This document shows, one piece after another, positions 9,092-10,945 of a stretch of DNA of 36,413 nucleotides. The position numbers and the translations under genes are program-made. A model generated the notes under the pieces. It was not told the origin of the DNA. It worked only from the letters and a program-made list of their open reading frames with translations, and did no database searches. The number at the start of each line of letters is the position of its first letter. The stretch's first letter is position 1. Source of the DNA: a virus. Lineage: Duplodnaviria > Heunggongvirae > Uroviricota > Caudoviricetes. The stretch is taken from IMG/VR virus record IMGVR_UViG_2724679172_000015; one strand, written 5' to 3'.

Positions 9092-9508
9092 ATGAATAAC
9101 AAAGATGTTAACGCTGTGCTTTCCCGGTTAATGTCACTATTCCAAGCAGAGAATGATAGTGAGTTGGCAAGAGCGCTTAACGTCAATAGGCAGACACTTG
9201 CAAGTTGGAGGAAGCGTGATTCTGTGCCTTATGCAATTTGCATAAACATCGCAGAAGAAAAGGGGGTTTCTTTAGATTGGTTGCTAACAGGTAGAAAACA
9301 AGGTTTATCAAAAGAAGTAGACGTAACTCCGACGCAAGTGCAGTTTAGCCAAGCTGACCTTACTATGCTTGAGCTTTTAAAGCAGCTAGACCCCGAGGTT
9401 CGTAACGATCTTCTGCGAGGCGCTGCGGAAAAACAGCGAGTGATCGAGATGGAAAAACAACTGAAGGAATTATCCGCAACGATTGAGCGGTTAAAAAATG
9501 TGGGTTAA
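9092..9508 (+). CDS. Phage repressor (CI/c-type HTH repressor with coiled-coil C-terminus, no peptidase domain)
   Basis: HTH segment DSELARALNVNRQTLASWRKRDSVPYAICINIAEEKGVSLDWLL; divergent from ner-like; ATG at 9092 preferred, GTG at 9077 is the alternative. Confidence 0.6.
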   Translation: MNNKDVNAVLSRLMSLFQAENDSELARALNVNRQTLASWRKRDSVPYAICINIAEEKGVSLDWLLTGRKQGLSKEVDVTPTQVQFSQADLTMLELLKQLDPEVRNDLLRGAAEKQRVIEMEKQLKELSATIERLKNVG

Positions 9509-9630
9509 TCTATTCCCAATGAGAACAATTGACAAGGTTATCAAACCTCTTCGTTATATGCGCTGATTTAAACAGTAGGATGTGCTGTTTGCACTAACCA
9601 TCTGAACTTTCCGCGTTAAGGATTAATCGT

Positions 9631-10524
9631 ATGAGTGGTGATGTGAGAAATTATCGTATTGAGTTTCATCAGCTATCGTTTAAGGCCACAGATCAGCTGG
9701 CAAATCTCGGAGATGCTTTTCAATCTGTAATTGATAAACAGAGCCCTTCCTCTTCAAACCATGAGGGTTTTACTAGAGAAATTTGGGGGTTGAAAAAACG
9801 CGCGGATGGTTCTTTTAGTGGAGAGTTGAGAAAATTTCGCAACTCGAACATTCCGGATAAAGGTGCACCAGGGAAACAGTCTACCCCTATTCCACTTGCC
9901 AAGGATGAAGGGATCATTGAGCGCAATTTCTTTGTATTCTATCCCCGAATCAATGTTATAGGTTGGCACTATAATCATATGGCTTGTGGTATAAGCCGTT
10001 TTAGTGCATTTCTTTCAACTATCTTTGGTTCAAAGGTTAAGCCCGCACCTTTGCTGGAAAAAGATGCAATCGCTAGGCTTATGAGAGGAGATGTCAAAAT
10101 GAAAAAAATCCAGTTGACGATTCCTCGCCCCCGTAATCCTGAGTTTTACCCTGATACTGATTTCAGTCAAAAGACACTACAACTGCTTGGTGATGCAGGT
10201 GCCGATACAATGCAAATTGTAATGGGGATTAATACTCGCCGTGGCGATAGTGATGGTAGGCTTAAGCAGAATATAAAATTTGCTATGCAAGAGTTAGTCG
10301 AGTTTGGGGCGAAAAAGGCTGTAATTGATGTGTTCGATGCTGATGGTGTTGTCCATCCTGTGGATTTGATTGCCGAGCGTATTTCGTCCTATCAATCGGT
10401 GGTTACTGACGCTCGTTTCCCTCCAGCCGAAACCATGTACCGTCTAATCGATACTGCGTATGCTGAAAACCGGGAGAGTATCAATGCATATATTGGAGAA
10501 GATGAACTCGGCCCTATTGCTTAG
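9631..10524 (+). CDS. Hypothetical soluble protein, 297 aa; candidate RexA-like sensor of a repressor-linked exclusion module
   Basis: AAGGA RBS 8 nt before ATG; immediately downstream of and co-oriented with the repressor; size and position match lambda rexA; no motif recognisable by eye. Confidence 0.55.
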   Translation: MSGDVRNYRIEFHQLSFKATDQLANLGDAFQSVIDKQSPSSSNHEGFTREIWGLKKRADGSFSGELRKFRNSNIPDKGAPGKQSTPIPLAKDEGIIERNFFVFYPRINVIGWHYNHMACGISRFSAFLSTIFGSKVKPAPLLEKDAIARLMRGDVKMKKIQLTIPRPRNPEFYPDTDFSQKTLQLLGDAGADTMQIVMGINTRRGDSDGRLKQNIKFAMQELVEFGAKKAVIDVFDADGVVHPVDLIAERISSYQSVVTDARFPPAETMYRLIDTAYAENRESINAYIGEDELGPIA

Positions 10525-10921
10525 TTTATTGATTGGATGTGGGATTGGTTTTCTCTACTGGTTCAAGTTGCCCCATATGCCAGTAGCCGCAATCCCAAAC
10601 TTCATGACTACATTGTCCAGTGTCTTTGCAACGTTGTTAGGTTTTATTATTACAGCAATTGCACTACTTGCATCATTGCTTGATAAACCGTTACTTAAAA
10701 ACATGCAAAAAACCGGACATTACAAGCGTCTGATGACCGATGCATTCTACACTTGCTTAGTTTTGCTAGTGTTGGTGTTGACATGTTTGATTGGGTTGAT
10801 GCTGCAAAGTAAGCATCAAGAGATTGTAGCCGCTATCCTCATTGGGCTTGTTGTTATGTCTATGTTGTGTTTATTACAAACAGGTAGGCGATTATTCAAT
10901 ATAATCAAAGTGATATCATAA
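10484..10921 (+). CDS. Four-TM membrane protein, 145 aa; candidate RexB-like effector
   Basis: GGGAGAG RBS 5 nt before ATG at 10484; four hydrophobic helices; overlaps upstream gene by 41 nt; AT-rich codon usage. Confidence 0.55.
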   Translation: MHILEKMNSALLLSLLIGCGIGFLYWFKLPHMPVAAIPNFMTTLSSVFATLLGFIITAIALLASLLDKPLLKNMQKTGHYKRLMTDAFYTCLVLLVLVLTCLIGLMLQSKHQEIVAAILIGLVVMSMLCLLQTGRRLFNIIKVIS

Positions 10922-10945
10922 CAATGCACCATCAGGTGCATTGTT
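10920..10945. terminator. Bidirectional terminator-like hairpin between convergent membrane-protein gene and methyltransferase gene
   Basis: Perfect 11-bp inverted repeat AACAATGCACC / GGTGCATTGTT with 4-nt loop, directly after the TAA of the plus-strand gene and 29 bp before the stop of the minus-strand gene. Confidence 0.5.

Follow-up and report, generated by a model that had tools for sequence, protein, structure and literature searches.

Positions 9,092 to 10,945 of a 36,413-nucleotide (nt) stretch of viral DNA (IMG/VR record IMGVR_UViG_2724679172_000015, Caudoviricetes; we call the whole stretch the window) carry an immunity repressor gene followed, on the same strand, by a two-gene module that resembles rexA-rexB of phage lambda. 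The window contains a Mu-like transposable Escherichia coli prophage with its early operon on the minus strand. The features of the locus, with protein lengths in amino acids (aa) and matches given with their expectation value (E), are as follows.

9033-9101, no strand assigned: three 18-nt direct repeats, TAYKCAAWATRAATAAMW, with copies at 9033, 9056 and 9084 that are 78-100% identical
9092-9508, plus strand: immunity repressor, 138 aa from the ATG at 9092 (Pfam Phage_CI_repr, PF07022, E 1.2e-17)
9509-9630, plus strand: spacer of 122 nt between the repressor and the RexA-like gene, without a terminator-like site, a plus-strand promoter-like site or significant structure
9631-10524, plus strand: RexA-like soluble protein, 297 aa, 33.3 kDa, isoelectric point 7.8, assigned to the DUF6731 (PF20505) family
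10484-10921, plus strand: RexB-like inner-membrane protein, 145 aa, with four predicted transmembrane (TM) helices (hydropathy, charge distribution, helices in an AlphaFold2 model, family alignment)
10917-10948, no strand assigned: hairpin with a perfect 14-bp stem and a 4-nt loop, AUCA (10917-10930 pairs with 10935-10948)

The original prediction had described open reading frames (ORFs) of 297 and 145 aa that overlap by 41 nt downstream of a co-oriented repressor, and we confirmed this arrangement. RefSeq's PGAP annotation of strain A31 gives the same coordinates for both genes, each as a 'hypothetical protein'. Further in-frame starts for the 145-aa ORF are present at 10460 and 10502; the N-termini of its homologues line up with the start at 10484. 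Shine-Dalgarno-like sequences are found at both genes (GGGAG about 7 nt 5' of the ATG at 10484, and AAGGA 5' of 9631). Judged by conservation, with homologues down to ∼ 24-28% identity across dozens of loci, both ORFs are real genes. The module is also AT-richer than its surroundings, as had been noticed: the G+C content is 0.419 over 9092-10945 versus 0.544 for the window, and 3 of 692 segments of the same size are equally low, all three overlapping the module itself. The repressor gene is likewise AT-rich (G+C 0.434).

The repressor contains a CI-type helix-turn-helix (HTH) domain, lacks an S24 peptidase domain, and matches PHROG families of transcriptional repressors. Its coordinates are those of the PGAP call in strain A31; an alternative GTG at 9077 is also open. 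The gene is divergent from the early operon, which encodes a ner-like protein and the transposase, and ends 122 nt 5' of the two-gene module. The TAYKCAAWATRAATAAMW repeats sit between the ner-like gene and the repressor and extend into the first repressor codons. Their position makes them candidate operators of the immunity switch, in which case they would also drive the module. The spacer at 9509-9630 is no more stably folded than shuffled versions of itself (z −0.49), and a scan of it for terminator-like sites returned none. The lack of a terminator makes the spacer compatible with read-through from the repressor promoter, so that repressor and module may be co-transcribed.

As predicted, the 297-aa protein appears to be soluble, with no hydrophobic segment (Kyte-Doolittle maximum 1.2). 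Searches with this protein gave no Pfam match at E ≤ 0.1, no PADLOC match at E ≤ 1 and no NCBIfam match; it matches PHROG 7651 only, a family of unknown function. The PF20505 model itself was not matched directly at E ≤ 1. Homologues at 40-76% identity do carry Pfam DUF6731 (PF20505), and when a profile built from homologues was run against 1.84 billion representatives, 1051 clusters at 50% identity were retrieved at E ≤ 1e-3, with lengths almost always of 280-300 aa. When 138 diverse members recovered with this profile were scanned, 127 matched PF20505 and none matched RexA at E ≤ 1. The 297-aa protein is thus a member of DUF6731 by homology rather than by a direct model match. Neither PADLOC v2 nor NCBIfam (June 2026) holds a model that recognises the family, as judged by scanning the same 138 members, and we found no paper mentioning DUF6731 in the literature searched.

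To compare the protein with solved structures, we used an AlphaFold2 model (mean predicted local distance difference test score (pLDDT) 75.5; predicted TM-score 0.73). The model has the two-domain arrangement of lambda RexA (PDB 8TWQ), with a split globular domain and a dimerisation domain. Of two independent searches of solved structures, the one with Foldseek against the PDB, an approach proposed in the original prediction, likewise ranked RexA first (E 1.1e-7, probability 1.00), followed by RdgC and Iml3. The same set of proteins has been reported as structural relatives of RexA (PMC11077077). Among the viral structures of BFVD, Foldseek found one RdgC-like protein and otherwise only uncharacterised viral proteins; lambda RexA was not among the hits. 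A search of PDB sequences with the hidden Markov model (HMM) of the DUF6731 members also gave weak matches to eIF2-alpha (E ≈ 0.02). We set these aside as chance, because neither search of solved structures ranks eIF2-alpha near the top.

At the level of sequence the two families are far apart. BLASTP of the 297-aa protein against lambda RexA gave E 2.4, which is not significant, and RexA (8TWQ) was not recovered among PDB sequences either by phmmer or by the HMM of the 138 members. Alignment of the DUF6731 profile to a shallow alignment of four RexA sequences with hhalign gave P 0.025 over 148 collinear columns, with a probability of 2%, and 1 of 100 column shuffles scored as high. Attempts to widen the RexA alignment through viral contigs and phage records yielded almost only near-identical copies of the lambda protein; next to RexB genes, RexA was frameshifted or missing. 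The modelled structure indicates that the DUF6731 protein has the RexA/RdgC two-domain fold, with lambda RexA as the nearest solved structure. The original prediction had allowed for an unrelated or undescribed sensor as the soluble partner. The model points instead to a remote homologue of RexA at the level of the fold, within a sequence family of its own that Pfam lists as uncharacterised.

The 145-aa protein had been predicted to span the membrane four times, and formal analysis bore this out. Hydrophobic peaks lie near residues 18, 56, 98 and 122 (Kyte-Doolittle 19-residue means of 1.9-2.7), to be compared with 17, 57, 93-100 and 125 in RexB, and the two proteins are almost equal in length (145 versus 144 aa). 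Four uncharged stretches of 21-38 residues are present, lysine and arginine are concentrated in the loop 66-86 and at the C-terminus, and the AlphaFold2 secondary structure consists of four long helices. A membrane protein of ∼ 144 aa with four TM helices is what characterises the RexB type, and hydropathy and modelled helices place the 145-aa protein there. Conserved motifs in the family are GTLLGF(I/L)(I/L)T in helix 2, N(M/L)xKTGHY in the basic loop that follows helix 2, and GRRF near the C-terminus. The protein belongs to PHROG 8552, of unknown function, and its close homologues are unnamed.

Alignment of the 145-aa protein to lambda RexB by BLASTP was collinear (26% identity) and not significant (E 0.4). 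Using hhalign, we aligned 24 diverse members of the membrane-protein family with 14 RexB sequences and obtained P 0.0043 for residues 39-83 against RexB 41-84 (44 columns). The aligned stretch corresponds to helix 2 plus the basic loop, in near-identical register. None of 200 column shuffles reached this score, and a reversed target scored 14.1 versus 22.9. One of the 24 family members touches Pfam RexB at E 0.0075, far short of the threshold and not distinguishable from the background of other membrane families. The earlier description of a RexB-like partner is supported by length and helix positions; the collinear profile similarity is weak, and hydrophobic bias may contribute to it. Kinship of the 145-aa protein to RexB is plausible.

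The association between the two genes was examined in fetched loci that encode DUF6731 relatives (L-numbers below). These loci span Enterobacterales prophages, Pseudomonas phage AUS531phi, Alloalcanivorax, a Lysobacterales metagenome-assembled genome (MAG), soil and water metagenomes, and a Vibrio Vinavirales element. In all 28 non-redundant loci, a homologous four-helix ORF of 135-157 aa follows and overlaps the DUF6731 gene. The overlap ranges from 1 to 74 nt and is mostly 38-41 nt, and the pairwise identities of the soluble and the membrane proteins correlate with r 0.93. The soluble-then-membrane gene pair, adjacent and co-oriented, is inherited as one unit.

The surroundings of the pair vary. 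It comes straight after a CI/HTH repressor, itself divergent from a cro-like gene, in the window, in its Mu-like relatives L008 and L029, in L005 (a lambdoid contig with cII-cro-cI(S24)), in L023, in L034 and in AUS531phi. One or two ORFs separate repressor and pair in L004, L010/L012 and L064. Besides the window, about ten phage backgrounds have the pair downstream of a repressor; elsewhere, the pair is found beside a Q antiterminator, lysis genes or HicAB. The pair behaves as a mobile moron that often, yet not always, uses the immunity transcript. Among 5426 complete E. coli genomes, 42 carry the module. Proteins of the same clusters are also annotated in Salmonella, Citrobacter, Klebsiella, Erwinia, Morganella and Enterobacter, in every case as 'hypothetical protein'.

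Two of the loci deviate from the usual tailed-phage setting. L074 (Vibrio phage 10N.286.54.F4_PE001) is a 14.6-kb non-tailed temperate element of the Vinavirales, with the pair at 1389-2896, directly after the integrase gene. Its DUF6731-like gene is longer (351 aa), and the stop of this gene overlaps the start of a 150-aa partner that carries the helix-2 and loop motif. The occurrence in a Vinavirales element implies that the cassette crosses virus realms. L004 (positions 1-7270) has the pair beside an Ogr/Delta-type zinc finger and an 881-aa Toprim primase, and looks like a P4-type satellite, not a full phage. Here two small ORFs separate the pair from an HTH repressor upstream of it.

How does the module relate to described Rex-like systems? 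With lambda RexA/RexB (Pfam PF15969 and PF15968; PDB 8TWQ) it shares the co-oriented series of a repressor, a soluble protein of ∼ 280-300 aa and a four-helix membrane protein of ∼ 145 aa, as well as the spacing after the repressor (112 nt between cI and rexA, 122 nt in the window). The original prediction had stressed this likeness of order, size and topology to cI-rexA-rexB, and it is upheld by the length and helix positions of the membrane protein and by the recurrence of the arrangement in unrelated phages. The differences are also clear. Lambda has a 15-nt gap between rexA and rexB instead of the 41-nt overlap; pairwise similarity to RexA is not detectable, and the Pfam and PADLOC Rex models are unmatched; the host of the module is a Mu-like transposable phage whose repressor lacks the S24 domain; and DUF6731 is far larger and taxonomically wider (the 1051 clusters) than RexA, which tblastn found in 19 phage records. 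The module fails the sequence definitions of RexA/RexB and agrees with the structural, topological and architectural ones.

Recognition of Rex-like systems from structure has precedents in Sucellos and RexABpp, and the kind of system is already known. Sucellos (SclA/SclB), a cassette of the Vibrio cholerae superintegron, is described as highly RexAB-like in predicted structure, with Pfam Rex domains unmatched; both genes are required, the system acts by abortive infection, and SclB is a predicted transmembrane pore (bioRxiv 10.1101/2024.07.02.601686). Sucellos homologues are detected by DefenseFinder and occur mostly in prophages, often of Salmonella, and a 2026 paper records a DefenseFinder 'Sucellos' match in a P4-like satellite of Enterobacter cloacae. 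For the DUF6731 family, too, we saw members in Salmonella, one in an element of Vibrio and one in a P4-like setting; on this comparison of descriptions the two could be one family. The Sucellos paper names other DUFs and never DUF6731 (bioRxiv 10.1101/2024.07.02.601686).

For RexABpp (PP_5643/PP_5644 of Pseudomonas putida prophage P1), experiments have demonstrated defence that requires both genes, DNA binding, and permeabilisation of the membrane on overexpression of the A protein (PMC12894663). It resembles the module in its four-TM partner and in the location of the pair downstream of a CI-like repressor (PMC12894663), and differs in having larger proteins (37.5 kDa for His-tagged A and at least 181 residues for B, against 33.3 kDa and 145 aa). 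Peptides from both termini of RexABpp, which we deduced from published primers, were absent from the best 150 DUF6731 matches, and a query consisting of these primer-derived termini only found nothing in viral or metagenome contig collections. RexABpp is probably a separate branch with larger proteins. The actinobacteriophage pairs (Sbash gp30/31, CarolAnn gp44/43, Butters gp30/31 and Toast gp42), which we could liken to the module by description only, also combine a soluble, dimeric, DNA-binding RexA-like protein with a membrane partner; some adjoin a CI/Cro switch, and heterologous phages are excluded. They differ in the size of the soluble proteins (337-372 aa), in their Actinobacteria hosts and, for Butters, in reversed roles. 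RdgC, the recombination-associated protein of E. coli (PDB 2OWL), is a more distant match to the 297-aa protein than RexA and, unlike the module, is a stand-alone housekeeping protein with no membrane partner or prophage context.

Considering these data together, we favour the reading that the two genes are a very divergent relative of lambda Rex, a two-component module for exclusion by abortive infection that a Mu-like transposable prophage carries as a cassette expressed in the lysogen, and we give it a probability of roughly 0.7. Analogy with lambda Rex, RexABpp and Sucellos suggests the exclusion function. In a lysogen, the pair would be transcribed together with the repressor, and the 41-nt overlap would couple translation of the two genes and so fix their ratio; the RexA:RexB ratio is known to matter for lambda Rex (PMC12894663). 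The soluble protein, a proposed DNA-binding sensor or activator, would engage the basic cytoplasmic loop or the C-terminus of the membrane protein. The latter, the proposed membrane-damaging effector, would then oligomerise or open as a pore or channel, and the inner membrane would be depolarised or permeabilised. The resulting loss of energy would arrest the cell, and the cycle of the invading phage would not be completed. As for lambda RexA, a second and compatible role of the soluble protein could be to modulate the prophage's own lysogeny-lysis switch.

Several points weigh against this reading. The 297-aa protein gives no match to any RexA sequence model (Pfam PF15969, PADLOC RexA, or the HMM search of PDB sequences). 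Its Foldseek TM-scores to RexA are low (0.38-0.40), and the root-mean-square deviation from RexA is large, an effect of the differing angle between the two domains. The 145-aa protein of the window does not match Pfam RexB (PF15968) at E ≤ 10, and its AlphaFold2 model, built from a shallow alignment, is too poor for a comparison of folds (pLDDT 59.9). The proposed link to RexB draws on size, topology, synteny and a weak profile score that hydrophobic composition could inflate. Coupling of expression to the repressor is not general, because more than half of the related loci have no adjoining repressor, and a promoter scan detected no internal promoter like PLIT of lambda. The abortive-infection role proposed for the DUF6731 family would follow from analogy, and in one described Rex-like system, that of mycobacteriophage Butters, the roles are reversed (PMC12894663).

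We also weighed other explanations, all of which we scored lower because they leave an obligatory, mobile two-gene unit unexplained. The pair might mainly serve the prophage's own lysis-lysogeny decision, the RexA-like protein biasing the repressor/ner switch towards lytic commitment, the membrane protein being an accessory, and exclusion being absent or incidental. This would fit the location of the soluble gene directly after the repressor and near the operator-like repeats, and the fact that the RexA fold is a DNA-binding fold; lambda RexA has such an activity independently of RexB (PMC11077077). However, strict linkage and co-divergence of the two genes persist where no repressor is nearby (beside Q, lysis genes or HicAB, and in the Vibrio Vinavirales element), a switch accessory is not expected to move as an autonomous cassette among unrelated regulatory circuits, and the obligatory membrane partner would have no explanation. 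We consider this unlikely. We are equally doubtful of a reversal of roles, as described for Butters gp30/gp31 (PMC12894663), in which the soluble protein is the toxic anti-phage effector and the membrane protein only sequesters it until infection. Tight translational coupling would suit a toxin and its neutraliser as well as it suits a sensor and an effector, but the membrane protein is the effector in four of the five Rex-like systems summarised in PMC12894663, and in Sucellos. Moreover, the most conserved motifs of the membrane protein lie in helix 2 and the adjoining basic loop, as expected for a gated membrane effector, and no enzymatic or toxin domain could be recognised in the 297-aa protein.

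Two further explanations seem very improbable to us. Small prophage membrane proteins beside immunity genes are often of the superinfection exclusion (Sie) or Imm type, and the pair has the appearance of AT-rich, moron-like cargo; the membrane protein could then block DNA entry at the envelope or, in the manner of a toxin-antitoxin addiction system, kill cells that lose the prophage. An entry blocker, however, would need no cytoplasmic partner with the DNA-binding RexA/RdgC fold, no toxin-antitoxin model in PADLOC or NCBIfam was matched, and for the best structural analogues, action after infection has been demonstrated. Finally, the soluble protein could be a factor of DNA metabolism similar to RdgC, for example one that is tethered to the membrane and regulates recombination or transposition on behalf of the Mu-like phage, with no part in defence. 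Both searches of solved structures argue against this, RexA being clearly closer than RdgC, as does the finding of the pair in elements that are not transposable (lambdoid, P4-like and Vinavirales). In the window, moreover, the pair lies outside the early replication and transposition operon, on the strand of the repressor.

The hairpin at the end of the module is strongly structured (folding energy −23 kcal/mol, z −6.2; none of 200 shuffles was as stable). It overlaps the stop codon of the membrane-protein gene and lies between the module and a convergent Dam methylase gene. The original prediction was right about a perfect terminal hairpin; the stem, given there as 11 bp, has 14, and no U-tract follows it. 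A terminator scan returned no sites, and a U-run after the stem is absent on either strand, so the hairpin is not a canonical intrinsic terminator. It is possibly a bidirectional transcript-end or stabilising element.

The remaining annotated genes are those of the early operon and of the region downstream of the module:

748-1146, minus strand: mor, early operon
3772-4302, minus strand: gam, early operon
4602-5795, minus strand: ExeA/MuB-like ATPase, early operon
5779-7548, minus strand: rve-type transposase, early operon
7552-8463, minus strand: DUF3102 gene, early operon
8474-8782, minus strand: second HTH gene, early operon
8779-9003, minus strand: ner-like gene, early operon
10974-11741, minus strand: D12-class Dam-type adenine methyltransferase (Pfam E 3.8e-31; PADLOC MTase_II E 2e-110)
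12172-12720, plus strand: 182-aa two-helix membrane protein, SLATT-like (NCBIfam SLATT_4 E 2.3e-6, below cutoff; PADLOC '2TM effector' E 4e-5)
12809-13237, minus strand: 142-aa P-loop protein (matches the first 137 of 242 positions of PHROG 3787)

The whole Mu-type early operon (748-9003, minus strand, from the ner-like gene to mor) is transcribed towards the prophage end, which in A31 adjoins a disrupted rlmI. The repressor and its cargo are therefore internal, between early and late genes, unlike in Mu, where they are at the genome end. Positions 1-787 of the window do not align to the A31 flank, as expected if the transposable phage inserted at different sites in different strains.

The Dam-type methylase gene is convergent with the Rex-like pair in the window. 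The same methylase (72-96% identity) accompanies the pair amid different surroundings in L008-L013, L029 and L010/L012, and is found upstream and divergent in L030. Unrelated methylases are located near the pair in L002/L003/L014 and in L016/L017/L032. Methylase and pair could form a three-gene cargo block, or their proximity could be a coincidence.

The SLATT-like gene lies within a variable segment of ∼ 950 bp (11886-12839). The A31 prophage, elsewhere 93-98% identical, has unrelated DNA in its place, which marks the segment as a swappable moron slot. A SLATT-like homologue (34% identity, E 9e-26) is located 650 nt upstream of the pair in the Lysobacterales MAG (L035). We considered the SLATT-like gene as a component of the system and rejected it, since a homologue is near the pair in only this one of the fetched loci. 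Homology to the A31 prophage resumes at position 12840 of the window, and A31 has a 242-aa gene at the place of the 142-aa P-loop protein. Together with the partial match to PHROG 3787, the full-length A31 gene suggests that the copy in the window was cut at its C-terminus by cassette exchange.

More tentatively, and at somewhat less than even odds, we propose that DUF6731 and its obligatory four-helix partner belong to the Rex superfamily as one of its large branches, with 1000 or more clusters at 50% identity. This branch would be absent from the annotation libraries searched and distinct from lambda RexAB, RexABpp and Sucellos, and would travel as an autonomous cassette of overlapping genes across Mu-like, lambdoid, P4-like and Vinavirales elements of Gammaproteobacteria. 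How RexA senses infection and opens RexB has been a standing question ever since Benzer worked on rII some 70 years ago. The family is of interest for its size and because it offers comparative material on this question of Rex activation. By the count of a 2026 paper, only five Rex-like systems have been described (PMC12894663). If such a branch exists, Rex-type immunity would be among the commonest prophage defences, beyond the handful of described cases, and the GTLLGF/KTGHY motif of helix 2 and the adjoining loop would mark the place where the sensor gates the membrane effector. A link between DUF6731 and Rex would also add a defence that PADLOC v2 and NCBIfam miss, which is relevant when susceptibility to phages is to be predicted, as in phage therapy directed at lysogens. 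With hundreds of co-evolving sensor-effector pairs to compare, the surfaces of interaction and the motifs involved in gating could be deduced, and 'hypothetical' genes in prophages of E. coli, Salmonella, Klebsiella, Citrobacter, Pseudomonas and Vibrio would receive a testable function.

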